DNA of 29,245 bases from Candidatus Lloydbacteria bacterium RIFCSPHIGHO2_02_FULL_50_18 (lineage in GTDB: Bacteria; Patescibacteriota; Minisyncoccia; Phycocordibacterales; UBA6899), in the NCBI GenBank assembly GCA_001821395.1, contig MHLM01000007.1:1-29245 (forward strand), written 5' to 3'. The translations under genes were made by a program, and so were the position numbers. Below the pieces are notes generated by a model. The model saw only the letters and a list, made by a program, of their open reading frames with translations, searched no databases and was not told where the DNA came from. This document shows, piece after piece, positions 3,021 through 22,553 of the stretch (the first letter of the stretch is position 1; each line of letters starts with the position of its first letter).

Positions 3021-6000
3021 TTATTTTACGTCGACCTCATCGATCGTATTGCGTCTCTTCAAGTACAGTCTCGTGAGCAGGAGTGTAAGGATGACAAGCA
3101 CGATGAGGAAATAAACTGAACTATCTGAAAGATGCAGTTTGTCCGATACTGACCCGACCACAGCGGCAAGTCCGCGCTTCGTGCTTGCACCAGCGACGAT
3201 CCCTTCTTCTTTAGTGACACTCGGATCAGTCTGCGTTCCTGAAAGCTCACCTCCCACATGCGGCATTGTTGCCAACAGGTCGGACAGCGCAAGCCTCCCA
3301 CGATTAACGAGCTTCGGTTCCGGTTTTTCCTTTTCATTCACGTCTATGGCTGCGAACACCCCTTCATTGCCGTTATTGACGCTTACCCCATTAGAAGCTC
3401 CATCGTTCGTATTCATTCCCACAAGAGGTAGTACGGAGGTTGTCGTACTGCCTTCTCTGTGGATCTTGTTGATAAGATCTCGGAATGCCGCAACCTCACT
3501 CACCTGCAAAGACGTCAGTGGAAATTCTTGCTTACAATAGAGCTCATTGACCTTCTTTTGTGTTGTGTAATACACATACCCCGTATTGCCCCGTAAATTC
3601 CAGATCGAAAGCACATCGACAGCGTACCTGTCTTGGAATGCGCGCACCGCGGCATCGGTAGTCGTATCGAAGAATCCGTTGACATCGAGCGTCGTGAATC
3701 CTTCGTAATTCCTGAGAAACGTCTGAAGCTTCGTCACTTCAACCGGATTGTTGTTTGCACCAAGCCTCATGTATGCATTGAGATATGAACACTCCGTTGA
3801 TTCACCGAGCACCGCACCCTGCGTCAGCTCAATTCCGATCGCACCCTCCGTGTCGGTCGTTGAGATCGGACGGAAATATGTCGAAACACCGGAAGGTATT
3901 CCCTCGATAGTGACGCTATGTGTCGTCGAGGCAATTGTGTCGGTCGCAGTAGAGAGATCGTATCCATAGAGCGGAGATGCTCCGAGACTCAAGACGGGTA
4001 GAAGTCCGTACGTCACGCGACTGGTCGCAGCGATGTTGGTATCCCAGGTCACCGTCACGGTCGTTGTGCCGGTGCTGGCAAGATGTTCATTGAATATCGC
4101 AAGCGTGACCGATCCCCCCCCGCAGTTAACTGTACAACCACCTCCACCGGGGACAACATTAACCGTACGCGTGACGGGTGTCGCGGCATGACCCTGTGCA
4201 TCAGCAACATTATAGGAAAGTGTATATGCACCGATCACACTTGCATTAACCAAACCACTGACAACAATACTCGAGGTAATGTCTCCGTCTTCCGGATCAT
4301 GCGCTGTTGCCCCGGGGTCAGCAAAGGTCGTATCCATGGTGATGCTCATTGGATCGGCACCAAGGAGCGTGAGCGTCGGACCCGTGTCGCGCTCATCATT
4401 ATCTTGCGGTGAATCACAGCCCGGATCTCGTGGGAAGTCTGCAAATCCGTCGCCATCGTTATCGCTCCCGTCTGAGCACGCTGCAGGAGGCTCGCCGCCA
4501 CAATTTTGCGTACACACGGCGGGAGTAACGTTCACTGTGCGCGACTGTGTGTCTGCCGCAACATCCTGCGAATCAGTGGCATTGTACTCGATCACATATG
4601 CACCTGCGACCGCCGTATTTACGGTACCAAAAATGACGAGCTTCCCGTCGATCTGTCCGTCTTCCTGATCGTGTACGGTTGCATTCGGTTCTCCATAAGA
4701 TGCGCCAACAACGAGATTCATTACGATGTCACCCAACAGCGTGATCATCGGCTTTGCATTTTCGCTATCGTCTTCCGAGGAACTACAACCCGGATCGAGC
4801 GGAAAATCGGTCAACTCATCTCCGTCATTGTCCCTTCCGTCAGAGCAACTTGTAACAACTCTTACGGTACGTATTTTTGTATCAGCGGCGAGACCCTTTG
4901 CATCTGCTGCGTCATAGGTAACCGTGTAAGTACCGAGCACGTTTGTATCAACGACACCCGTCGTCACGAGCGTGATTGCTCCTTCTTCAGGATCAATAGC
5001 CGTTGCGCTCGGATCAATGAATGTCACACCAAGATGGATCTCGAATGGATTGTCACCGAGCACGGTGATGACCGGCTGCTCATTCTCATCGTTATCCTCC
5101 GAAGAGTCACATCCTGCGTCCCGAACCACCTCAATGTTTCCTGAAAAGTCGACATGACCGTCACCATCATTATCGATACCATCATTACACTCCGTAACGG
5201 GAGGGGTCACGTTCACAATGCGCGTCTTTTCAGCGGCTGCAAGCCCCTTCGAATCTGAAACATTATAGTGAAGCGTGTATGAACCAACAATAGACGTATC
5301 AACGGTGTCCGTCATTAAAATACTTGCAGCAGGGATGACACCATCCTCTTCATCAAATGCCGTTGCACCGATATCGGTAAACGTACCACCCTGCGTAATA
5401 CTAAAGGGATTTGCTCCGACCACGGTAATAACGGGAGCGTTGTTCTCATCATTATCATTCGGACCTTCGCATCCTAGATCTCCACCGGCAAAGTCGGTCT
5501 TTCCGTCATGATCATTATCCTTCCCGTCAGCACACGCTGCGACGACGCGAACGATGCGCGTCTTCGTGTCAGCTGAGATATTCAGTGAATCGGTTGCATT
5601 ATAAGTGATCGTGTAATTGTTAAGGACATTTGTATCAAGGACACCCGTCGTCACCAGCTTTGAGAGCGTAATGTCTCCGTCTTCCGGGTCAACCGCAATT
5701 GCTCCTTCATCAGCGTAGGCATCACCAAGCGTAACAATAGCGGGGTCCGCTCCGATGACGGTGATGACCGGCTGCTCATTCTCATCATTATCCTCCGGGC
5801 CCTCACAGCCAGCGTCACCTCCGACGAAATCGGTCTCGCTGTCGTTGTCGTTGTCTTTCCCGTCGCGACATTGCGGTTTATTTGATTCGGTATTCAAGAA
5901 ATTTTGCCCCGCCAATACTGCACCCGGATCAAGATTCAAAAAATAACATCCGTTATACATTGAGCTGACCGGTGACGTCTCCGTCCATCCGCTCCGAGCG

Positions 6001-7649
6001 ACTTCGCAAAGCAGGTAGTTGCCCGGAATAACATCGCTGAACACATATGAACCATCGGCGCTTGTTGTCGTATTCAACGTAAGCCCGTTTCCTGCCACTT
6101 CAGTAAGGGTGATTTCCCAACCTCCTATGCCCACTTCAGCACTATCAACAACGCCATTTGCATTTTCATCGTTAATCTTTTTTCCAGAGACATTGGCAGG
6201 ATCACGCCGACACTCTGTCGTTGCGATACTCTGATAGATAGCAGTGAGATCGGCGCCAGTCGGAGCAAAATAATAATTCGACGGCTGTGATGCGATCTGC
6301 TTCATCAGCGTCGGATTCACGTGGGCGCCCAGCCCGATGGTATAAATGACCGTTCCCAGCGATTTCGCTATCGACGATTGTGTGACCGCAGCAGCACTCG
6401 CAGCCGCAGTAGACACACCCTCTACCTCTGGGACACCGTCCGAGAGCAATATCATCACATGCTTTGTACCGATACGCCCGTTTGCCGTCATCTCTTCCGT
6501 TGCCTTGTTGATCGCTTCGCTAATGTTTGTACCACCAGCCGCGGCAACAGAAGCGAAGCTGGACTTTACCGCAAAAAGATCAGAAGAAAGTGCCGAATTG
6601 AGCGTCGTAGCCGCACTATAGGTCACTACTCCTGCCTTATCAGTTAGTGGTGAAAGACCATCAATGAAAGTTGCTGCGCCGCTCTTTGCCTGGGTCAAAG
6701 GCTGCTCGGGATCTATCCCGTCAAATTTCATGCTCCCTGAACGGTCAATGATCAGCATGACATCAATCGGAGCGAGACATGCCTGTGCGAGTGTAACAGT
6801 GACAATGCGTGTTTTTGTATCAGCGGCAATATTTTGAGAATCAGTTGCGTTGTAGGTGATAGCGTATGTACCCAGTGTGTTCACGTCGACGACGCCGGTC
6901 GCAACGACCTTGTTGTTTATTTGCCCATCTTCAGCATCAAACGCTGTTGCCCCTTGATCGATGTAGATGTTGCCAAGGATGACCTCCACAGGATTATCAC
7001 CGACAATAGTGATCACCGGTTGCTGGTTTCCTGTTGGAGGAGGAGTCGTGCACCCCTCTCCATCAAGAGCAACATGTAGCCCATAAAGCAATCCAGCGGG
7101 ATTCAACTGTGGTGAACTTCCTACTTGTGCCCAATTTTTTACAGTGAAAGAAAGGGTGTTCGCTCCAACATGCAGACCAGAAAGTACATTGTAAGTATCT
7201 TTTTCCCCATCGAAGTAATTATATTCGGTATTATCTCCACCGATCGGATTCCCATTAAGTGCAACAGTATATGAATTATCAGCAGCAATCACGAGCGAAC
7301 CATTAAGTGGGACCGAGGGTAGATCGAATGATCTTGTAAAAGTCACTGTTTCATCGACCGAAGGATCAAGCACGAGATGCGAACTCCATATCCATGTTGC
7401 CCCGGGAATTAACGCTGTCCACCTTACGTTACCATTATACGTCGGCGTAGCATTCACTCCTCCCATGATGGTTGTGTGAATATCAGAAACGATATCAACA
7501 TCACAAACAACGGGCTGATCACTCAGAACGGTCGCATACGCAACCAGAGGTGCACCACCACCTTGCAGCAGCAAAGAAAATGCCATCAGCATTGCGACTG
7601 ATCGCTGTTTTAAAATTTGTTTTTTCGATGAGGTAAATATGGTCTGCAT
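3021..7649 (-). CDS. giant secreted/cell-surface multidomain protein
   Basis: 1542-aa ORF with an N-terminal signal peptide (KKQILKQR then a hydrophobic stretch). VWA domain with an MIDAS-like DRSGSM motif (about nt 6212-6782). SdrD/CnaB-like fold (GGWEITL...DGSYVF). Six tandem repeats, each a Cys/Asp-rich motif (C.DG.DND.DG..DF..D.GC) followed by an Ig-like PVIT..G.NP...GxxYxDxGAxAxDxxDGxI domain. Peptidoglycan-binding-like segment (LQTFLRNYEGF...AVRAFQDRYA). C-terminal hydrophobic helix followed by KRRN. Confidence 0.8.
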   Translation of the reverse strand: MQTIFTSSKKQILKQRSVAMLMAFSLLLQGGGAPLVAYATVLSDQPVVCDVDIVSDIHTTIMGGVNATPTYNGNVRWTALIPGATWIWSSHLVLDPSVDETVTFTRSFDLPSVPLNGSLVIAADNSYTVALNGNPIGGDNTEYNYFDGEKDTYNVLSGLHVGANTLSFTVKNWAQVGSSPQLNPAGLLYGLHVALDGEGCTTPPPTGNQQPVITIVGDNPVEVILGNIYIDQGATAFDAEDGQINNKVVATGVVDVNTLGTYAITYNATDSQNIAADTKTRIVTVTLAQACLAPIDVMLIIDRSGSMKFDGIDPEQPLTQAKSGAATFIDGLSPLTDKAGVVTYSAATTLNSALSSDLFAVKSSFASVAAAGGTNISEAINKATEEMTANGRIGTKHVMILLSDGVPEVEGVSTAAASAAAVTQSSIAKSLGTVIYTIGLGAHVNPTLMKQIASQPSNYYFAPTGADLTAIYQSIATTECRRDPANVSGKKINDENANGVVDSAEVGIGGWEITLTEVAGNGLTLNTTTSADGSYVFSDVIPGNYLLCEVARSGWTETSPVSSMYNGCYFLNLDPGAVLAGQNFLNTESNKPQCRDGKDNDNDSETDFVGGDAGCEGPEDNDENEQPVITVIGADPAIVTLGDAYADEGAIAVDPEDGDITLSKLVTTGVLDTNVLNNYTITYNATDSLNISADTKTRIVRVVAACADGKDNDHDGKTDFAGGDLGCEGPNDNDENNAPVITVVGANPFSITQGGTFTDIGATAFDEEDGVIPAASILMTDTVDTSIVGSYTLHYNVSDSKGLAAAEKTRIVNVTPPVTECNDGIDNDGDGHVDFSGNIEVVRDAGCDSSEDNDENEQPVITVLGDNPFEIHLGVTFIDPSATAIDPEEGAITLVTTGVVDTNVLGTYTVTYDAADAKGLAADTKIRTVRVVTSCSDGRDNDGDELTDFPLDPGCSSSEDDSENAKPMITLLGDIVMNLVVGASYGEPNATVHDQEDGQIDGKLVIFGTVNTAVAGAYVIEYNATDSQDVAADTQSRTVNVTPAVCTQNCGGEPPAACSDGSDNDGDGFADFPRDPGCDSPQDNDERDTGPTLTLLGADPMSITMDTTFADPGATAHDPEDGDITSSIVVSGLVNASVIGAYTLSYNVADAQGHAATPVTRTVNVVPGGGGCTVNCGGGSVTLAIFNEHLASTGTTTVTVTWDTNIAATSRVTYGLLPVLSLGASPLYGYDLSTATDTIASTTHSVTIEGIPSGVSTYFRPISTTDTEGAIGIELTQGAVLGESTECSYLNAYMRLGANNNPVEVTKLQTFLRNYEGFTTLDVNGFFDTTTDAAVRAFQDRYAVDVLSIWNLRGNTGYVYYTTQKKVNELYCKQEFPLTSLQVSEVAAFRDLINKIHREGSTTTSVLPLVGMNTNDGASNGVSVNNGNEGVFAAIDVNEKEKPEPKLVNRGRLALSDLLATMPHVGGELSGTQTDPSVTKEEGIVAGASTKRGLAAVVGSVSDKLHLSDSSVYFLIVLVILTLLLTRLYLKRRNTIDEVDVK
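4200..5900 (-). repeat. intragenic tandem coding repeats (about 290 bp x6) inside the giant protein gene
   Basis: Repeated protein modules (MopE-like motif plus Ig-like domain). The repeats also show up as families of similar spurious plus-strand ORFs in this interval. Confidence 0.6.
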
Positions 7650-7788
7650 AGAGTGGGTAAAGATTAGTGGGTACTAATAATAAAAATTTAAAAAAGATTT
7701 CCACCTCTTTTGGAGGTGAATAATGGCGTAATTTGGAATAACTATTCAAAAACAAGAAACAAAAAGAAAAGATCAAACGATTTCCCGC

Positions 7789-7816
7789 AGTATATATTCT
7801 ATTTACATGTAGTCAA
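7789..7816 (-). promoter_or_regulatory. sigma70-like promoter for the giant surface protein gene
   Basis: Minus strand: -35 TTGACT (plus 7811-7816), 16-nt spacer, -10 TATACT (plus 7789-7794). It is followed by a leader of about 130 nt. Confidence 0.4.
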
Positions 7817-7970
7817 TGTGTGTTTAATTTTTTGATGGCCCAGTTGAGCCATATAAAGGACATTATTTATGTCTTTTATGCTGTCCTATAGAAATCATAA
7901 AGGACATTTATTGCTGTAAAGCCATAAATTATGCCATGCTTCACCTTCAACTATAGATACTGCTTCGTCA

Positions 7971-7985: not shown

Positions 7986-10181
7986 ATGGATGATAAATTT
8001 CTGACCCCATACAAGCCCGAGGAGACTGAAGAGAAAGTATACAAAGCGTGGCTCGATTCGGGAGTATTCAATCCCGATATTTGTATACAAAAAGGAATCA
8101 CAAAAAATACGGCGGAAACTTTTTCAATGGTCCTTCCTCCGCCAAACGTTACCGGCATACTGCACATGGGTCATGCGGCAATGATCGCGATCGAAGACAT
8201 CATTGTGCGATACGAGCGCATGAACGGAAAAAGAACACTCTGGATCCCCGGGACTGACCATGCCGCGATCGCAACACAATCAAAAGTCGAAAAGATCATC
8301 GAAAAGGAAGGGACGAACAAACATAAACTGGGGCGTGATGCATTCATGATTCGCGTTGAACAGTTCGCGCAAGAAAGTCATGACACGATCGTCAACCAAA
8401 TAAAAAAAATGGGCGCATCGATTGACTGGAGTCGCGAAGCGTTTACGCTTGATGAGAAGCGTAGTCTTGCCGTCCGCACCGCATTCAAGCGCATGTATGA
8501 CGATGGACTCATCTATCGCAGCGCACGCATTGTGAACTGGGACCCGAAAGGACAGACGACGATCTCTGATGATGAGATCGTTCACGAAGAGCGAAAGGCG
8601 ACGATGTATACATTTCGCTATTGGAAAGACTTCCCTATCGCGATCTCAACCACGCGTCCTGAAACAAAAGTCGGCGATGTTGCGGTCGCAGTGCATCCCG
8701 ACGATGCGCGCTACAGCAAGTTTGTCGGACAAATTTTTTCCGGTGAGTTCTGCGGTGTGCCGCTCCATATCACTATTGTTGCAGATGAGTCCGTCGAGAA
8801 AGATTTTGGTACCGGTGCACTTGGTGTCACTCCTGCACACAGTCAGATCGACTGGGAGATCGCTGCGCGGCACAAGCTTTCTCACAAGCAGGTCATCAAT
8901 GAGTATGCGAAGATGATCGTCGGCGACGAACGCCTCATGGGGAAGAAGGTCGGTGAGGCGCGTACCGCCATTGTTGAATGGATTCGCGCAGAGGGTCTTA
9001 TGGAAAAAGACGAAGAAGTGACACAAAATGTCGCAACGGCAGAGCGCACCGGCGGCATTATCGAGCCGCTTCCAAAATTGCAGTGGTGGATCGACGTTGA
9101 AAAAAATTTCGCCATGAAGGGCGATGGGATACCCGGTATCACAAAGGGGCAAAATGCCACACTCAAGGAAGTGATGACTAAGGCGGTCGCAGCGCATGCG
9201 ATCACCATTCTCCCCGAGCGTTTCGAAAAAACGTACTTCCAATGGATCGATAATCTTCGCCCATGGTGCATATCGCGTCAGATATGGTATGGACACCGAA
9301 TCCCCGTCTGGTACAAGGACGAAGAAGTATACTGCGGGATAGAAGCACCAACAGGAGCGGGGTGGACCCAGGATGAGGATACCCTCGATACGTGGTTCTC
9401 TTCCGGACTCTGGTCATTCTCGACCCTCGGTTGGCCGAACATGGAGGCCAAAGATCTCCAGGACTATCATCCGACCAACCTGCTTGAAACAGGGTATGAC
9501 ATCATTTTCTTTTGGGTTGCACGCATGATACTCATGTCCGGATATCACCTCGGCACCGTCCCCTTCCGCACCGTGTATCTTCATGGACTTGTCCGAGACG
9601 CAAAAGGAAAGAAGATGAGCAAGTCACTCGGTAATGCGATCGACCCACTTGAAATGATCGAAAAATATGGCGCGGACGCGACGAGACTTTCTGTCATCAT
9701 CGGGGCAGGACCGGGTTCGGACGTCAGCCTTGCTGAAGACAAAATACGCGGCTATAAAAAATATACGAACAAGATCTGGAATATCGCTCGCTTCATTCTT
9801 TCAAATACTGAAGGGGTGGACTTGTCAACAAAACCGACGCTCACCGCTCGTGAGGTAGAGATATTGTCTGAATTCAATGCGGTGATCGCATACACCGATC
9901 TGCACATACGAGAATTCAAGCTCCACCTGGCGGGAGAAAAGCTCTACGACTACACGTGGCATATCTTTGCGGATATTATTCTCGAAGAGAGCAAGGAAGC
10001 GCTGCTTTCCGATGATAGTGCCGTAAGTACTTCACGCAAATGGCTACTTCGGCACATCTTTGAAGAACTATTAAAATTGCAACACCCCTTCATGCCATTC
10101 GTAACCGAAGAGATATGGGGTTCACTCCCAAACAGAAAACAACCGCTCATTATTACTCCGTGGCCAAAGCAGGCAATATAA
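7986..10181 (+). CDS. valS: valine--tRNA ligase (ValRS), lacking the usual C-terminal coiled-coil domain
   Basis: PPPNVTGILHMGHA (ValRS-type HIGH region), KMSKS, WCISRQ, and an editing-domain segment. The 731-aa protein ends right after the anticodon-binding region. Confidence 0.8.
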   Translation: MDDKFLTPYKPEETEEKVYKAWLDSGVFNPDICIQKGITKNTAETFSMVLPPPNVTGILHMGHAAMIAIEDIIVRYERMNGKRTLWIPGTDHAAIATQSKVEKIIEKEGTNKHKLGRDAFMIRVEQFAQESHDTIVNQIKKMGASIDWSREAFTLDEKRSLAVRTAFKRMYDDGLIYRSARIVNWDPKGQTTISDDEIVHEERKATMYTFRYWKDFPIAISTTRPETKVGDVAVAVHPDDARYSKFVGQIFSGEFCGVPLHITIVADESVEKDFGTGALGVTPAHSQIDWEIAARHKLSHKQVINEYAKMIVGDERLMGKKVGEARTAIVEWIRAEGLMEKDEEVTQNVATAERTGGIIEPLPKLQWWIDVEKNFAMKGDGIPGITKGQNATLKEVMTKAVAAHAITILPERFEKTYFQWIDNLRPWCISRQIWYGHRIPVWYKDEEVYCGIEAPTGAGWTQDEDTLDTWFSSGLWSFSTLGWPNMEAKDLQDYHPTNLLETGYDIIFFWVARMILMSGYHLGTVPFRTVYLHGLVRDAKGKKMSKSLGNAIDPLEMIEKYGADATRLSVIIGAGPGSDVSLAEDKIRGYKKYTNKIWNIARFILSNTEGVDLSTKPTLTAREVEILSEFNAVIAYTDLHIREFKLHLAGEKLYDYTWHIFADIILEESKEALLSDDSAVSTSRKWLLRHIFEELLKLQHPFMPFVTEEIWGSLPNRKQPLIITPWPKQAI

Positions 10182-12659: not shown

Positions 12660-12734
12660 TGGTGCCCCCAGCGGGAATCGAACCTACATCTACTCCTTAG
12701 GACGGAGCTGTTCTATCCATTGAACTATGGGGGC
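12660..12734 (-). tRNA. tRNA-Arg (CCT)
   Basis: 75-nt cloverleaf: GCCCCCA TA GTTC AATGGATA GAAC A GCTCC GTCCTAA GGAGT AGAT GTAGG TTCGATT CCCGC TGGGGGC A CCA. The anticodon is CCT, CCA is encoded, and the T-stem has one A-C mismatch. Confidence 0.75.
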
Positions 12735-12894: not shown

Positions 12895-12945
12895 TCACCT
12901 TAGGACGGAGCTGTTCTATCCATTGAACTACAGAGGCGACGAGCG
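12895..12945 (-). pseudogene. tRNA 5'-half fragment (acceptor 5' strand through anticodon loop), paralogous to tRNA-Arg(CCT)
   Basis: 33 nt (D-arm to anticodon loop) are identical to tRNA-Arg(CCT). The acceptor strand is GCCTCTG rather than GCCCCCA. The sequence diverges after the anticodon loop and there is no T-arm. Confidence 0.45.
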
Positions 12946-14794: not shown

Positions 14795-15088
14795 GACTAT
14801 AGTATACCCCGTAGTGAGCCCTCACCGATAATCGAGGGTTGTGTATTTCTCGCCTAGCCAGTAAAATATCGATCGCATACAAGCTCTGGCGCATTAGGTC
14901 TACTACGAGGTATACTATTGAACAATCACCAAAAACATATGTCACTATTTCTCCGAGAAAAAAAGCACAAAAAATGGTTCAATCTTGTCTGGACCATTGT
15001 GGGTATCATGGTCATAAGTAGTATGGTACTCCTCTATCTCCCCGCCTTCCTCTAATAATACCATCTCCAAGAAACCTCTGAACACCAA

Positions 15089-15185
15089 GTCCGGCAAATT
15101 TCGGCTCTGTCATCAGGAAAATATGAAGTCCTATCTCGATAGGTCTTCATATTTTCCTGATGCCCCGCTCGAAATTTTCTCGGAC
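15089..15185. repeat. 97-nt imperfect palindrome with a 52-nt near-perfect core
   Basis: catcaggaaaatatgaag t cctatc tc gatagg t cttcatattttcctgatg (15111-15162, 24 bp paired) is extended by gtccg...cggac arms. It lies in a 540-bp non-coding interval. Confidence 0.55.
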
Positions 15186-15252
15186 TTATGTCCAGACCTT
15201 TCTTGTCGATGGTATAAACTTGATATTCTCGATGCAGTGCGAGACGGCAAGT

Positions 15253-15334: not shown

Positions 15335-17248
15335 TTACTCGTCGGAGCGGATCATCTTGATGAACACATCCGCCGGAATGTTCACATTCCCCATCTCCTG
15401 CATCTTCTTCTTCCCCTTCTTTTGTTTCTCGCGCAATTTCATCTTACGCGTAATGTCGCCACCATAGAGATATCCCGTCACATCTTTTTTGAGTGCAGAA
15501 AGTCGCTCGGACGAAATGATACGACCCATCGCCTTCGCCTGCATCTTGACCACGATCATCTGGCGAGGCATCGACTTGGCCAATTTTTTTACCGCAGCCT
15601 CCGCCTCCTCTTGTGCACGTCTTCGCGAGACAACACGAGAGAATGCCGTCACGGCTTCATCGTTCACGAGAATATCAAGCCGTGTTACATCAGCATCACG
15701 GAAGCCGCCTATCTCGTATGAGAGACTTGCAAAACCGGATGAAATAGACTTGAGCTTATCAAAAAAGCTCCGCATAAGCTCGCGCAAAGGCATCTTAAAT
15801 TCAACCTTAAAACGATTCTCTCCAAAGATCTCCGTGTTCCCCGTCTCTGCCTCATGCTCGAACAAGAGCTGTGTCACCGCACCGAGATAGTCCGGTGGTA
15901 AAATGATCTCACCATCTATCCAGGGTTCGCGCACCGAAACGATCTCGCCATCCTCAGGAAAAAGTGACGGTGAATAGATAATATCGGTTTTTTTGGTACT
16001 TTTCCGAGTGACCTCGTAGGTGATTGTCGGGGTTGTTACCACGAGCTCAAGGTCAAATTCTCGACGTAAGCGCTCCGTAATGATCTCGAGATGGAGCATC
16101 CCAAGAAAGCCACAACGAAATCCGCGACCCAGATTGCCTGATGCCTCCTCTTCAAAGGTCAGCGACGAATCCGAGAGTTGAAGACGCTGTAGCGCAAGGC
16201 GCAACGTCGGAAGATCATCCTGGCTCTCCGGGTACACGGACGCCCACACAACCGGACGGGGCTTTCCGTAGCCAGGAAGTGCAGGGAGCGGATTACGATA
16301 AAAGGTGACCGTATCTCCGACTGCGGCAATACCCGGACGTTTAATTCCGGTCACAATGTAGCCGATCTCTCCGTGAGAAAGGTCGGGCTTCGCAACCTCA
16401 CCAGGGGCAAAGTATCCTGTTTCGAGCGCAAAAAATTTCTCCTTTGCCGCTGAAAAAGTAAGCTCTGAACCTTTCGTGATCGTACCGTCGAGAACGCGCA
16501 CGTAAAGAATAACTCCCCGATGATTGGAATATGAAAAATCAAAGATAAGCGCACGCGCACTCTTCGTGCCGGGAAATTCTTCTTCGGGTGGCGGGATACG
16601 GAGAATGATCGCCTCAAGCAGCGCGTCGACCCCCTCCCCCGTTCTTCCGGAAACGAGCAGTACGCTCTCAGGCGGAACGGAAAGTAGAGCAACGACCTCA
16701 TCGCGCACTTCGTCGACGCGAGCAAGTGGTGAGTCTATTTTTGAGAGGACCGGGATGATGGTGAGCCCATGCTCACGCGCCATGGCGAGCGTAGTGAGCG
16801 TTTGTGCCTGTACCCCCTGCGTCGCATCCACGAGGAGAAGACATCCCTCGACCGCCTTGAGCGCTCGCGAAACCTCATACGAAAAATCGATATGCCCCGG
16901 TGTGTCGATGAGGTTCAGGAGGTAGTGTTCCCCCTTATATTCGTGGTACATACGCACGGGCTGCATCTTGATGGTGATACCGCGCTCGCGCTCAAGTTCC
17001 ATGGAATCAAGAACTTGTTCATGCATTTTTCGCTTTTCGATCGTATGCGTCGTCTCCAGCATGCGATCAGCAAGCGTTGACTTCCCGTGGTCGATATGGG
17101 CTATGATACTAAAGTTTCTGATCAGATTTTTGGACATGGGGCTTGTCATCAGATGACGAACTTTTTTGTTGCGGGGTCCCTGCGACTCGGTCACCATATA
17201 TGAATATGTCTCCCTCATCGCTTTCCCCGCGCCGCAAATTTCATTCAT
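15335..17248 (-). CDS. lepA: translation elongation factor 4 (LepA)
   Basis: NFSIIAHIDHGKSTLADR G1 motif, DTPGHIDF, NKID, EF-G-like domains and a LepA C-terminal domain. The N-terminal extension is uncertain. The ATG at 17248 has TGCTAGTAT 15 nt upstream. Alternative ATGs lie at 17218, 17197 and 17137. Confidence 0.85.
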   Translation of the reverse strand: MNEICGAGKAMRETYSYMVTESQGPRNKKVRHLMTSPMSKNLIRNFSIIAHIDHGKSTLADRMLETTHTIEKRKMHEQVLDSMELERERGITIKMQPVRMYHEYKGEHYLLNLIDTPGHIDFSYEVSRALKAVEGCLLLVDATQGVQAQTLTTLAMAREHGLTIIPVLSKIDSPLARVDEVRDEVVALLSVPPESVLLVSGRTGEGVDALLEAIILRIPPPEEEFPGTKSARALIFDFSYSNHRGVILYVRVLDGTITKGSELTFSAAKEKFFALETGYFAPGEVAKPDLSHGEIGYIVTGIKRPGIAAVGDTVTFYRNPLPALPGYGKPRPVVWASVYPESQDDLPTLRLALQRLQLSDSSLTFEEEASGNLGRGFRCGFLGMLHLEIITERLRREFDLELVVTTPTITYEVTRKSTKKTDIIYSPSLFPEDGEIVSVREPWIDGEIILPPDYLGAVTQLLFEHEAETGNTEIFGENRFKVEFKMPLRELMRSFFDKLKSISSGFASLSYEIGGFRDADVTRLDILVNDEAVTAFSRVVSRRRAQEEAEAAVKKLAKSMPRQMIVVKMQAKAMGRIISSERLSALKKDVTGYLYGGDITRKMKLREKQKKGKKKMQEMGNVNIPADVFIKMIRSDE

Positions 17249-19481: not shown

Positions 19482-21983
19482 TTACGGTACGACTCTACCT
19501 GAATTCAATGAATTAAGTGCATCGTTAACAGGCTGGGTCGGCGCAGCGTATTCTTTATCGAACGCCCCGCGTCCTGCCTTCAGATTCTTTATAATCGTAG
19601 CCACCTCTTTGTTCTCGGGGTTCAATGTTTGCACATCAGTGAATTGTTGTAATGCCTCAGCGTTTCTACCCAATCGGTCGTACGCAAGGCCGAGGAAATA
19701 TTTCGCATCAGCGTATGCGGGATTCAAGTAGACCGCCGCCTCGAATTGGTCAGCAGCAGACTGGTAATCGGACTTTGCATAGTAGAGATATCCGAGGGCG
19801 AAGCGCAGGAGAAAGTTGGTCGGCTCTGCGGCGACTCCATTTTGAAGCACACCTATCGCCGCTTCCGGGTTCTTATCTCCGACCTCAATCTGCACGAGGA
19901 ATGAAACCGCCTCAAGGAAGTTCGGTCGCTCAGCTAGCGCTTGATAGAGATACTCCTTTGCCTTATTTCGTTCGCCGGCTACAAATTCCAAGCGAGCGAG
20001 CACGAACAGCACGCGCGGACTCTTAGGATTGAGACGTAATGCCTGGGCATAATTCTCACGTGCCGGTACTGAAGTGTTCTGTATCCCGAGCGAACCAAGC
20101 GTGTCGTAAACACCGCCGAGCTGCAAATAATTCTCGAAGTTCGTTGGATCAAGTACGATTGAACGCTCTGCGCTCTTTCGAGCGGCAAGGATATAGCCAT
20201 TCGCTAACTCCACCGCTTGTTCTTGCGGTAATTTTTGCGTGGCGAGCTGCTGAAGCTTGATGAGTGCAAGATTTGAGATCGCACGTTGATACACATCCCG
20301 CTCCGCAAGCGCGTTCGCTCTCACGAGCGCAGTTTCGGCCATTTCAACATTGCTTTGCCCGATCGCAAGCTGAGCGTCACGGAATGCGACCAATGATGAT
20401 ACCTGGCGATACAATAGGACACTCGACGCAACGACTCCGACCATAACAACAATGATTAGCGGTGTCATCATCATAGAAAGTTTTGAATCACCGACGAATC
20501 GTAAACGGAAACTTCCTACCGCGCCCTCACTTGTGAGAAACGCGATGAGCGCGCCGGTAAAAAGGAATGCGAGCGCAAAGATCGCGATATTCGGCAGGTA
20601 GAAGAACGCAAGGCTCCAGAAATACACTACTAGGAAGAAAAGTGTGAATGCAAGAAATGCAGCAATGCGATCTTTCGCAAAAAGGGCGTAGATACGTCTT
20701 GCTTTCATGAGCAGCAACACGATGAATGCGAGCCAAAGCAGCGTCCCGATAATACCCGTTGTCCCGAAATACGTCGGAATGCGTCCAAGTCCAAAATCGA
20801 ACGTCGAATCCCAGAATGGGGTGCGATTCATATCCGTTGTCTTGAATTTCAAATATCCCGATGAAAAACGGTTCGGACTCGTGCCAAAGAGGGGTGATTC
20901 CTTGAGTGTATTCGCAACGATGTCATACGTAAACTGAGGTGTGAGTACGACCTCGGAATATGGAGATGAATGAAGCACCTTCGCAACGACGCTCGCGATC
21001 GTGCTATTGTCCTTTCCCCAAGATATCGTCGAGAGACCGCTGCCGTAAATAAAGGCAACAAGAAGGAACACCACCGCAAATATCGGAAGATGCCCCGCGA
21101 CGCGCTTGTGAACAGGCTTATGCGGATGATGAGTGCCGCTCGTCTGTGCTTCGTGAATAGCGCGCCTATGTGACCGCTCACCTTCAAATATCGCGAATGC
21201 AGTGAGCGCACTGATAAGCACAAAGAGGATGAACCATAGTACCGTGAAGTCCACCATGACCAGGAAGAAAAGCCCGAGGGAGAGGATGAGGTACGAGGGC
21301 ATGCGGAGTGTTTTGTTTTGAGGAAAGAAATAAAGCGCGGAGAGCACGAGCAGGACCAATCCGCCGACCAAGGATGCCATATCATTCCATTTTCCGACCG
21401 GAGAGGAGACATCACTCGTGAAAATGCCAAAATCCAGAAATCCCGCACCAAAGAAGTGGCGAAGGACCTGATAAAGCATCACAACAAGTCCGGAGAGGAT
21501 GAAGGACACATAGAGCGAGAGGATGCGATCACGACTCGTCAAGACGACGGACCCCATGAACATCAGGAGGAAAAGTACGATGAAAGAATTGACCGTTCCT
21601 ATATCATATCCGCTACCGATGAATGAAAGCATCGGCGTCGGAGATACGATCGCAGCAATAACGAACTGCACCACAAGCAGTGACGAGACTAACAGTAGCG
21701 AACTCTTCGGTACATCAACCTGTCCGTCGCGCAATCGTCCCGCGGCCCATATAAGCACACTCGCCAATACGAGCACTTCGAGTAGGATCATTTTTGCAAA
21801 TTCAGGAGCAATGAGCTGTCCCGGAATGAAGAAAACCGGGAGCAGGAATGAAAGACCGAGTAATATCCAAAAAAGTGATCGATCGGAAAACACCTTATGT
21901 GAAAGCACTTTCCCGAGCAGCATTCTGGCGATCGGCGAGGATTTGACGCGTGTACCGCTATCTCCTTGTTGTTCGTCTGACAT
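19482..21983 (-). CDS. polytopic membrane protein with C-terminal TPR repeats (O-antigen ligase/polymerase-like architecture)
   Basis: The start was chosen at MSDEQQ (ATG 21983), because the upstream part of the ORF-track ORF overlaps the promoter region. About 12 TM helices are followed by roughly 300 aa of TPR-like repeats (AYADAKYFLGLAYDRLGRNAEA...). The gene ends 19 nt upstream of murJ. Confidence 0.55.
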   Translation of the reverse strand: MSDEQQGDSGTRVKSSPIARMLLGKVLSHKVFSDRSLFWILLGLSFLLPVFFIPGQLIAPEFAKMILLEVLVLASVLIWAAGRLRDGQVDVPKSSLLLVSSLLVVQFVIAAIVSPTPMLSFIGSGYDIGTVNSFIVLFLLMFMGSVVLTSRDRILSLYVSFILSGLVVMLYQVLRHFFGAGFLDFGIFTSDVSSPVGKWNDMASLVGGLVLLVLSALYFFPQNKTLRMPSYLILSLGLFFLVMVDFTVLWFILFVLISALTAFAIFEGERSHRRAIHEAQTSGTHHPHKPVHKRVAGHLPIFAVVFLLVAFIYGSGLSTISWGKDNSTIASVVAKVLHSSPYSEVVLTPQFTYDIVANTLKESPLFGTSPNRFSSGYLKFKTTDMNRTPFWDSTFDFGLGRIPTYFGTTGIIGTLLWLAFIVLLLMKARRIYALFAKDRIAAFLAFTLFFLVVYFWSLAFFYLPNIAIFALAFLFTGALIAFLTSEGAVGSFRLRFVGDSKLSMMMTPLIIVVMVGVVASSVLLYRQVSSLVAFRDAQLAIGQSNVEMAETALVRANALAERDVYQRAISNLALIKLQQLATQKLPQEQAVELANGYILAARKSAERSIVLDPTNFENYLQLGGVYDTLGSLGIQNTSVPARENYAQALRLNPKSPRVLFVLARLEFVAGERNKAKEYLYQALAERPNFLEAVSFLVQIEVGDKNPEAAIGVLQNGVAAEPTNFLLRFALGYLYYAKSDYQSAADQFEAAVYLNPAYADAKYFLGLAYDRLGRNAEALQQFTDVQTLNPENKEVATIIKNLKAGRGAFDKEYAAPTQPVNDALNSLNSGRVVP

Positions 21984-22053
21984 AAATTTTTTTGATAAAC
22001 AAATAATAAATACGCACAAAATCTCTTCCTCCAAAGAGAGTAGATTACGCATG

Positions 22054-22062
22054 ATTATAGCA
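22054..22062 (-). promoter_or_regulatory. extended -10 TGCTATAAT for the TPR-membrane/murJ operon
   Basis: This is the same TCTCGTGCTATAAT 14-mer seen at 13296. It lies about 70 nt upstream of the ATG at 21983. Confidence 0.4.
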
Positions 22063-22159
22063 CGAGAAAAAGCATGCCCTTCTATCAAAAAGTGAACAAT
22101 GAAATCATTTGAATACAGAATATTGGACGTATCAAGTCTTTGCTGTTTTATTAAAAAAT

Positions 22160-22200
22160 CACATAAAAGAGAAAAGTTCGCCCTATTTGGACGAACTTTC
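22160..22200 (-). terminator. rnpB terminator
   Basis: On the minus strand: stem aaagttcg/cgaacttt (plus 22173-22180 and 22192-22199), then a T-rich run, immediately after the rnpB 3' end. Confidence 0.5.
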
Positions 22201-22203
22201 CAT

Positions 22204-22553
22204 GCACCTTGTATCGATAAGCCGAATTCTGTCCCCAAAACGCACGCTTTGGGTGGTATCCATTTATCTAGGCTCTCGGTTACCCGAAAGCTCAAGCGGC
22301 ACTTCCCAACTTACGCCAGGACACGGCCTTGCACCCAGGTAAGGATTTAGCCGTTTCACCCCCGCATTTCGGCGGGATTATCCATCGGATAAATCCGGAC
22401 GGATCCCATTTCTTTCGATCTGGGCGTCACTGCTCGCACCTCTATGGTTGCCCACGACGGGCGTTACCCGCTACCCTCTTACCACTTTCATGGTGAGCGT
22501 TCGGACTTTCCTCACTTCCCTTGCGAGAAGCGCGGATACCTAATACAAGGCTT
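22204..22553 (-). ncRNA. rnpB: RNase P RNA (bacterial RnpB)
   Basis: The minus-strand sequence contains GAGGAAAGTCCGAAC (P4 5' strand) and GGGGACAGAATTCGGCTTATCG (the universal ACAGAAnnCGGCUUA P4 3' strand). A P1 helix forms between CCTTGTAT and ATACAAGG. It also has GGTAACGCCCG and TAAATGGATACCACC segments. The region is GC-rich and non-coding, with only spurious ORFs. Confidence 0.8.

Follow-up and report, generated by a model that had tools for sequence, protein, structure and literature searches.

How ultrasmall bacteria of the candidate phyla radiation (CPR), or Patescibacteria, recognize and attach to their hosts is described as largely unknown (PMC12206443), and one locus raises that question in a concrete form: what is the role of the large surface protein encoded by gene X, a gene of 1542 codons located in a 29,245-nucleotide stretch of DNA (the window) from Candidatus Lloydbacteria bacterium RIFCSPHIGHO2_02_FULL_50_18 (contig MHLM01000007.1)? 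From its N-terminus, the protein comprises a signal peptide, a CBM67-like domain, an Ig-like domain, a VWA domain, an SdrD_B domain, five units each combining a Cys/Asp motif with a further Ig-like domain, an FN3-like domain, a PG_binding_1-like domain, a tether, a transmembrane helix and a basic tail. Judging by this architecture, the product is probably a fibrillar adhesin that depends on calcium, is anchored as a type-I membrane protein and is tethered to peptidoglycan, in a Lloydbacteria-like bacterium within the Parcubacteria (CPR). The gene and the parts of its product are arranged in the window as follows:

3021..7649, minus strand: gene X as a whole, 1542 codons and a stop (open reading frame list and translation)
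7533..7649, minus strand: predicted signal peptide, residues 1-39, with a K/R-rich n-region, a hydrophobic core and an AYA/T boundary (sequence; pattern in homologues)
7035..7532, minus strand: CBM67-like lectin-type beta-sandwich, residues 40-205, with C49 and C200 at its ends (profile A1, AlphaFold2, Foldseek)
6789..7025, minus strand: Ig-like domain 0 (PF16403), residues 209-287 (Pfam and pattern scan)
6204..6788, minus strand: VWA domain with a full metal ion-dependent adhesion site (MIDAS), C291 and C480 at its ends (Pfam; VWA alignment)
5874..6203, minus strand: SdrD_B/CnaB-type domain with the EF-hand-like loop DENANGVVDSAE, residues 483-592 (Pfam; sequence)
5541..5870, minus strand: composite unit 1 (acidic Cys-clamped motif plus Ig-like domain), residues 594-703 (domain and pattern scans)
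5196..5534, minus strand: composite unit 2, residues 706-818 (domain and pattern scans)
4854..5189, minus strand: composite unit 3, residues 821-932 (domain and pattern scans)
4515..4847, minus strand: composite unit 4, residues 935-1045 (domain and pattern scans)
4494..4514, minus strand: CTQNCGG mini-loop linker, residues 1046-1052 (sequence; linker type kept in homologues)
4146..4478, minus strand: composite unit 5, residues 1058-1168 (pattern scan; identity to orthologues)
4113..4136, minus strand: CTVNCGGG linker, residues 1172-1179 (sequence; homologue alignment)
3810..4112, minus strand: FN3-like beta-sandwich, residues 1180-1280 (weak Pfam match, AlphaFold2, Foldseek)
3525..3809, minus strand: PG_binding_1-like helical domain, residues 1281-1375, with C1287 and C1372 at its ends (Pfam; profile A5)
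3174..3524, minus strand: one helix, then a disordered G/S/T/N/V-rich tether, residues 1376-1492 (AlphaFold2, composition)
3024..3173, minus strand: conserved helix (STKRGLAAVVGSVSDK) preceding the membrane, transmembrane helix at residues 1512-1530 and a basic tail beginning KRRN (hydrophobicity, alignment, AlphaFold2)

Fibrillar adhesins are composed of stalk repeats, an adhesive domain and an anchor, and all three components are present in this one protein together with a predicted signal peptide. A first-pass annotation of the same DNA, made from the sequence alone, had left the N-terminal domain as an unknown one. A profile of 31 homologous N-domain segments (A1) matches the CBM67 region of the Streptomyces avermitilis rhamnosidase SaRha78A (3w5m residues 134-231) with an E-value of 1.4e-19, and the two-domain mushroom lectin POL (6kbj, 6t0q, 6t1d) with an E-value of 1e-14. 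The AlphaFold2 (AF2) model of the domain is a confident beta-sandwich with a predicted local distance difference test score (pLDDT) of 92, for which a Foldseek search against the PDB returned 3w5n and 3w5m at ranks 1-2 (E 2e-6), followed by GH2 and GH78 sugar-binding domains. The residues AAD124-N125 are invariant in the 31 sequences and align with SAD179-N180 of SaRha78A, where D179 and N180 are what we take to be the acidic pair reported by Fujimoto et al. in 2013. CBM67 is a calcium-dependent sugar-binding module (PMC4690510; PMC11512411), and a conserved acidic pair has been described as its Ca2+/sugar site (PMC11512411). By both its sequence and its modelled fold, the N-terminal domain is a CBM67-like calcium lectin module, for which sugar binding is predicted.

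The remaining parts of the head have been identified with Pfam. The VWA domain (PF00092) is matched at residues 296-472 (E 1e-18, 68.2 bits against a cut-off of 23.8), and its MIDAS, comprising D302/S304/S306/T374/D404, is complete, with the five residues retained in 42-44 of 44 aligned VWA sequences. The adjoining SdrD_B domain (PF17210) is matched at residues 493-560 (E 1e-11, 45.4 bits against a cut-off of 29.7), and it is opened by DENANGVVDSAE, a sequence that conforms to DxNxNGxxDxxE, the pattern of EF-hand loops; an EF-hand-like loop of this kind is typical of the SdrD_B family. Both domains had been foreseen in the first-pass annotation, as a VWA domain with a MIDAS-like motif and an SdrD/CnaB-like fold, and the same holds for the 1542-residue open reading frame at 3021..7649, for the signal peptide, for the Cys-rich linkers (CTQNCGG at residue 1046, CTVNCGGG at residue 1172) and for the C-terminal transmembrane helix followed by KRRN. 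The domain search it had recommended does detect VWA, Ig-like (DUF5011, now PF16403) and PG_binding_1 domains through Pfam.

The stalk is dominated by Ig-like domains, with Bact_surface_Ig-like (PF16403, formerly DUF5011) matching six stretches of the whole protein (E 8e-91, 298.5 bits). A pattern scan places the Ig-like domain starts at residues 211, 627, 739, 859, 967 and 1091 and the Cys/Asp motifs at residues 594, 706, 821, 935 and 1058 (n=5), so that one lone Ig-like domain precedes the VWA domain and five units of motif plus Ig-like domain follow SdrD_B. Such composite units had been claimed earlier, six of them with one additional Ig-like domain; the units exist, their number is five and the Ig-like domains total six. 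The fifth Ig-like copy is modelled by AF2 with a pLDDT of 81-90. The Cys/Asp motif is best named through NCBIfam NF033662 (acidic double-disulfide repeat), which matches five stretches (66.8 bits in total, cut-off 41). Of the 32 model positions, each copy spans 5-28 or 5-29, one of them only 5-20, and each contains two Cys, equivalent to one disulfide, whereas the family name implies two. A literature search on the term 'acidic double-disulfide repeat' found nothing.

A consensus drawn from 70 distinct motif instances in homologues (profile A3) reads xCSDGxDNDGDGxxDYPxDxGCDxPxDNxENxKP, with C2, D4, G5, D7, N8, D9, D11, D15, D19, C22, D27 and E30 invariant. The best PDB matches of this very short profile are EF-hand loop II of calmodulin, DADGDGTIDFPE (E 0.15), and the C-rich domain of teneurin-4, 7plp (E 1.3), both below significance, while the Pfam scan of the motif instances returned weak EF-hand matches only. 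In the 1.5 A structure of teneurin-4, calcium is coordinated by D840, D843, N844, D845, D847, D851 and D854, two of the three calcium ions being held in the manner of thrombospondin type-3 repeats, and a disulfide joins C838 to C857 (PMC9058538). These calcium-coordinating residues match motif positions D4, D7, N8, D9, D11, D15 and D19, and the C838-C857 disulfide matches C2-C22. Because of this close correspondence with the teneurin-4 calcium sites, we infer that each Cys/Asp motif is a calcium-binding connector clamped by one disulfide. The 22 Cys residues of the protein fall into pairs that bracket its domains (49/200, 291/480, 548/568, 1287/1372, the five motif pairs and two CxxxC loops), and the ectodomain is strongly acidic, with 197 D+E against 69 K+R.

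At the base of the stalk, the domain map proposed earlier, from the N-terminus to the anchor, had overlooked the FN3-like domain at residues ~1180-1280. This region gives a weak Pfam match to Pur_ac_phosph_N. An AF2 run on residues 1050-1542 with 17 homologues (alignment A2) yielded a well-modelled Ig-like domain, an FN3-like sandwich (strands at residues ~1185-1278, block-mean pLDDT mostly 60-85 with one low loop) and a helical domain at residues ~1300-1398, and Foldseek related this C-terminal model to Ig-FN3 tandems. The PG_binding_1-like segment, which had also been proposed, is recognized by Pfam (PF01471, residues 1304-1342) at a marginal 24.7 bits in the whole protein (cut-off 23) and at 30.6 bits when isolated. 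A profile of the FN3 and peptidoglycan-binding (FN3-PGB) module (A5) matches SleB, a spore cortex-lytic enzyme, in its PG-binding domain (6tci, E 0.0044) and, more weakly, an endolysin and a Streptomyces D-Ala-D-Ala carboxypeptidase. Residues ~1400-1492 are modelled as disordered (pLDDT <50), followed by a short helix and a long one that includes residues 1512-1530, the sole strongly hydrophobic C-terminal stretch, after which KRRN occurs. The region preceding the membrane helix is conserved as STKxGLAAV..S.S in homologues. Other routes to the surface have left no sign in the protein: an LPx[TSA][GANS] sortase signal is absent from its whole length, as is the RTX sequence GGxGxD, the C-terminus is a transmembrane helix with no type 1 secretion system (T1SS) signal, and no lipoprotein (lipobox), PEP-CTERM or PGF-CTERM sorting signal occurs at a plausible position. 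In the homologues P0002, P0004, P0009, P0012 and P0014 an extra module of ~30 residues, GCxDPxAxNYNxLANKDDGSC, is found between the last Ig-like domain and FN3 (alignment A2 columns ~160-190), a module that the window protein does not have.

Taken as a fibrillar adhesin, the protein would be exported through Sec, leaving its C-terminal helix in the membrane with KRRN toward the cytoplasm, while the tether and a domain predicted to bind peptidoglycan would hold the base in the wall. The FN3-like domain and the five Ig units would then form a stalk tens of nanometres long, its joints stiffened by Ca2+ in the DxDNDxDGxxD loops and stapled by one disulfide each. Two sites would be presented at the distal tip. 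At the first, which is CBM67-like and bears the acidic pair of AADN, glycans would be bound in a Ca2+-dependent way; at the second, the metal-ion-dependent VWA MIDAS, a protein ligand would be held through one of its acidic side chains. Both may serve to fasten the cell either to another cell, whether host or partner, or to a surface coated with glycans. The earlier proposal of a multi-adhesin candidate for host or partner attachment stands as far as the architecture is concerned, and adhesion, which is read from the anatomy of the long form present in the window, is its likely function.

Relatives of the protein give this reading an evolutionary setting. The closest homologues belong to Parcubacteria/Paceibacterota metagenome bins (44-66% identity), with Candidatus Lloydbacteria as the nearest named genomes. 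It had been stated that no single family covers the protein, which is true of Pfam and NCBIfam; full-length homologues nonetheless exist, one with 58% identity over 98% of the length. About 20 proteins share the same signal peptide and the order of repeated motif-Ig units, FN3, PGB, tether and transmembrane helix, and differ in their heads: P0004, from a genome (L006) whose TsaD is 86% identical, is without VWA and SdrD_B, P0010 is without VWA, P0002 is without the CBM67-like domain, and P0003 has an added PA14. The gene order of the window, with Hsp20, PrsW and LeuRS on one side of gene X and TsaD on the other, also surrounds P0003 and P0010. When each GTDB species, represented by one genome, was surveyed with the C-terminal profile, 298 loci were confirmed and 80 fetched; at least one flanking gene was present in 54 of these, and both LeuRS and TsaD in 37, with TsaD identity down to 40%. 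The loci were picked by their C-terminal module, so that its presence is given by construction, whereas synteny is independent of the selection. In most of the loci with both flanks, the gap between them holds one large open reading frame of 491-2039 residues, and most of these keep a signal peptide or N-terminal hydrophobic segment, a PGB (usually after FN3) and a C-terminal transmembrane helix, with a variable middle. The shortest form, of 491 residues (L074), consists of signal peptide, FN3, PGB and transmembrane helix. The locus is conserved across Parcubacteria. A search of 1.84 billion cluster representatives with the FN3-PGB profile yields at least 489 proteins when the limit is E<=1e-30 and 4942 when it is E<=1e-10; most of the best-scoring full-length proteins have the module in their C-terminal third, and conservation is highest in this module (PGB 72-83% identity, against 36-69% for head parts). 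Since a variable head sits on a conserved anchor at one fixed locus, the comparison suggests that the head sets target specificity.

Several observations weigh against a calcium-dependent adhesin. The calmodulin and teneurin matches fall short of significance, AF2 leaves the Cys/Asp motif unmodelled (pLDDT <50 in the run on residues 1050-1542), and the PG_binding_1 match spans model positions 4-41 of 57 only. The ligand of neither head module can be derived from the sequence. Moreover, the head-less minimal versions occur at a housekeeping locus conserved across Parcubacteria, so that the scaffold may originally have had a structural and not an adhesive role. This leads to the alternative of a mainly structural envelope protein, serving as a membrane-to-wall tether, a spacer or an S-layer-like component in which the decorated ectodomain is secondary and adhesion plays no part. 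The conserved flanks with mostly one large reading frame between them, the existence of forms reduced to the anchor, the superior conservation of FN3-PGB and its wide distribution across protein clusters all agree with such a role, as does a near-consensus promoter-like site upstream with similar boxes in orthologues. A pure spacer would, however, hardly be expected to carry two classic ligand-binding modules at the membrane-distal end, one with its MIDAS complete and the other with the conserved acidic pair of a lectin; head make-up shifts even between close relatives (TsaD 82-86% identical), as would be expected of a specificity determinant; and a protein with 22 Cys and no detectable self-assembly domain is unlike an S-layer protein. 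A mainly structural function is considered unlikely. It is more doubtful still that the lectin and VWA head captures environmental polysaccharides or mineral and organic particles, for scavenging or biofilm anchoring, instead of a host. CBM67 modules are known in rhamnosidases and in fungal lectins that bind free or polymeric sugars, and PA14, a glycan-binding fold, is added in some homologues, but no catalytic domain was found in the protein and no glycan-use genes among its neighbours, and all cultivated Patescibacteria are obligate episymbionts according to one account (PMC12206443).

Two further alternatives concern the repeats themselves. The first-pass annotation had described the Cys/Asp motif as Cu-binding_MopE/TSP3-like, and a metal-scavenging surface protein with MopE-type copper sites could be imagined from the superficial likeness to the CDGxDNDCDG 'putative metal-binding motif'. 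Neither Cu-binding_MopE (PF11617) nor TSP_3 (PF02412) matched at E<=10 in Pfam scans of the whole protein, the isolated units and 32 motif instances, and membership of both families has been rejected on these grounds; the thrombospondin lead is the closer of the two, by way of teneurin. The candidate ligands are all O-donors (Asp/Asn), typical of Ca2+; the motif contains neither His nor Met, and apart from its pair it has no Cys, in particular none at the 'DNDCDG' position. Together these points make copper sites very improbable. The internal repetition of gene X could also be taken to mean that chimeric or collapsed repeats produced the reading frame during assembly, or that it belongs to a pseudogene, and recent DNA repeats of ~290 bp, prone to assembly collapse, had indeed been proposed. 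The data describe repeats of another kind: Tandem Repeats Finder detects no array at the unit period, its single find being a 20-nucleotide run of a 6-nucleotide unit, and a repeat finder returns only 38-65-nucleotide pieces at spacings of 324-372 nucleotides with 62-85% identity. Whole units share 57-68% of their DNA and 41-62% of their protein sequence, and the longest exact word common to two of them is 29 nucleotides. Unit 5 is 79-83% identical to the position-matched unit in P0002, P0003 and P0005, above any paralogous unit, and orthologues keep the unit order. Since unit 5 is closer to orthologous than to paralogous units, the duplications are older than these species, and by this comparison the repeats are ancient and not recent. 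Furthermore, the exact 4629-nucleotide gene is present in a 140-kb ENA MEGAHIT contig and in a Logan contig (L001, L002), the 11.4-kb Logan locus shows 0 mismatches to the window, the identical protein occurs on 7 contigs, and the frame of 1542 residues is unbroken in the translation of the window. Assembly collapse is unlikely and gene X is a real gene, which leaves an artefact or pseudogene a negligible probability. A diversity-generating retroelement was also looked for, and neither a repeat pair of the template/variable (TR/VR) type in the window nor a reverse-transcriptase domain among the scanned open reading frames was found.

The start of gene X has been placed with the help of its relatives. 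The N-terminal pattern MxNIF...AFSxxLQ...PLxAYA is common to most full-length homologues, and the window protein matches it from M1 only (MQTIF...MLMAFSLLLQGGGAPLVAYA), whereas the gene call of the database copy (P0001, 1523 residues) begins at M20. A Sec signal requires a basic n-region, and the M1 start provides one. Because both the family pattern and the basic n-region are present only from M1, the comparison supports translation from M1, at position 7649. Two further features lie upstream:

7789..7816, minus strand: promoter-like TTGACT-16-TATACT (sequence; comparable boxes in six orthologues)
7700..7720, minus strand: leader hairpin CACCTCC-AAAAG-GAGGTGG (8-bp), followed by a T-run (sequence)

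The near-consensus, sigma-70-like promoter-like site is situated ~140 nucleotides upstream of the gene X ATG, and an ATTGACA/TTTGACA box with a downstream TATAAT-like hexamer occupies the equivalent place in six orthologous loci (L003, L004, L006, L012, L016, L020). The hairpin with its T-run is terminator-like, its 5' arm resembling an anti-Shine-Dalgarno and its 3' arm a Shine-Dalgarno sequence, and it is kept, with altered sequence, in L006, L016 and L020. An Rfam search of the 5' leader returned no riboswitch and no known RNA; the whole leader folds about as well as shuffled sequences (z = -0.09), with the local hairpin alone standing out. In the upstream regions of the orthologous loci L003 and L006, the palindrome AGGACA-N7-TGTCCT immediately precedes the -35 box, and the leuS/X intergenic region of the window contains TGTCCT...AGGACA...TGTCCT at ~7870-7935, with spacings that differ from those of the orthologue palindrome. 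The intergenic palindrome is a candidate operator of the divergent leuS/X promoters.

A broader and decidedly tentative view is that the family constitutes a Parcubacteria-wide display scaffold, in which a conserved signal peptide, FN3-PGB, tether and transmembrane helix between leuS and tsaD would carry head cassettes (CBM67-like, VWA-SdrD_B, PA14 and others) exchanged between lineages, the head being the main determinant of the host to which an ultrasmall episymbiont can attach. Expression might in that case be gated by the conserved promoter, the palindrome and the leader hairpin. A literature search on CPR VWA adhesins found no paper on the gene X family. Gene X and its conserved-locus family provide a testable candidate for CPR host attachment, with two separable tip modules and a predicted calcium-dependent stalk, and no family has been named for the FN3-PGB-tether-transmembrane anchor module, which occurs in hundreds of protein clusters. 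Should host range follow head composition, leuS-X-tsaD could become a marker by which hosts are predicted, from metagenomes, for Parcubacteria not yet in culture. Should it not, gene X and its relatives nevertheless form a common part of the envelope, for which the searched libraries have no single family spanning the whole.

The surroundings of gene X consist of core genes, with a U32 peptidase, TsaD, LeuRS, PrsW, Hsp20, LepA and MurJ as neighbours in the window, along with an M23 peptidase carrying PG_binding_1, three tRNAs and the RNase P RNA. The identity of LeuRS (window 7986-10181, plus strand) to its counterparts in the compared loci (L003-L084) is bimodal in close relatives, at ~68-82% or ~41-43%, while the adjoining PrsW and TsaD remain 61-88% identical in the same genomes, a pattern which suggests that leuS has been replaced by another type in part of the lineage. 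Beyond the window end (L001 15923-16572), about 5 kb past the TsaD side of gene X and beyond the U32 peptidase, a second large protein of 773 residues with weak PG_binding_1 and fn3 matches is encoded, perhaps a paralogue that makes use of the same anchor. T4SS_pilin-like and sortase genes occur a few kb downstream of tsaD in the P0010 locus (L004 12119-12484 and 16494-16617), and neither is among the open reading frames scanned in the window. The RNase P RNA, of class A (119 bits, window 22202-22551, minus strand), overlaps the 5' end of the reading frame 19482..22295 encoding a TPR protein, and the start of the TPR gene must therefore lie downstream of the listed TTG. A 40-nucleotide piece overlapping the tRNA-Arg(CCT) gene is duplicated at 12695-12734 and 12898-12937 (203 nucleotides apart, 93% identity) and could be an integration or att-site remnant. 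Directly downstream of lepA (15335..17248, minus strand), an imperfect inverted repeat with 78-nucleotide arms, 74% complementary and separated by 2 nucleotides, is found at 15058-15215.

When compared to known systems, the closest parallels are found among the fibrillar adhesins of Gram-positive bacteria, such as the MSCRAMM SdrD and the pilus-tip VWA adhesins RrgA, GBS104 and EbpA. As in gene X, these have a signal peptide followed by a distal ligand-binding region, a Ca2+-stabilised rod of repeated Ig-like or CnaB-type domains, a MIDAS-bearing VWA domain adjoining a CnaB/SdrD_B-type domain, and wall-proximal anchoring. Gene X differs in having no LPXTG/sortase signal, being anchored instead by its own transmembrane helix and a PG_binding_1-like domain, in a stalk made of PF16403 Ig-like domains with acidic disulfide-clamped motifs, and in the CBM67-like lectin at its tip. 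A second parallel is offered by the type 1 secreted RTX giant adhesins, among them MpIBP, LapA and FrhA, whose distal modules can include sugar-binding and VWA domains. They resemble gene X in a long Ca2+-rigidified Ig-like extender, a distal ligand-binding cluster and a very acidic composition. Ligand-binding domains at the distal tips are also described in a preprint (bioRxiv 10.1101/2025.09.30.679566). In contrast to the RTX adhesins, gene X lacks RTX nonapeptides and a T1SS signal, belongs to a Gram-positive-like CPR envelope and has the reverse orientation, with a distal N-terminus and an anchored C-terminus.

At the level of single modules, the CBM67 of SaRha78A (3w5m/3w5n) and the tandem CBM67-like POL (6kbj, 6t1d) share with gene X a beta-jelly-roll with W-I-W and AAD(N/D) motifs, whereas the gene X module is not joined to a glycosidase, is bracketed by a Cys pair and carries an extra conserved NPAG motif. 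The Cys/Asp motif has the pattern C-x-D-x-x-D-N-D-G-D-G-x-x-D...D-x-x-C in common with thrombospondin type-3 repeats and with 7plp, the C-rich domain of teneurin; it differs from teneurin in having two Cys (one disulfide) where teneurin has six, and in forming a 32-residue connector between Ig-like domains, at the E-value of 1.3 given above. Of the new points, three are the most useful: a head that is CBM67-like, connectors that read as probable calcium sites, and the conserved leuS-X-tsaD locus with exchangeable heads. Seen beside these systems, the protein is assembled from known parts and is distinct in its anchoring and its connectors.

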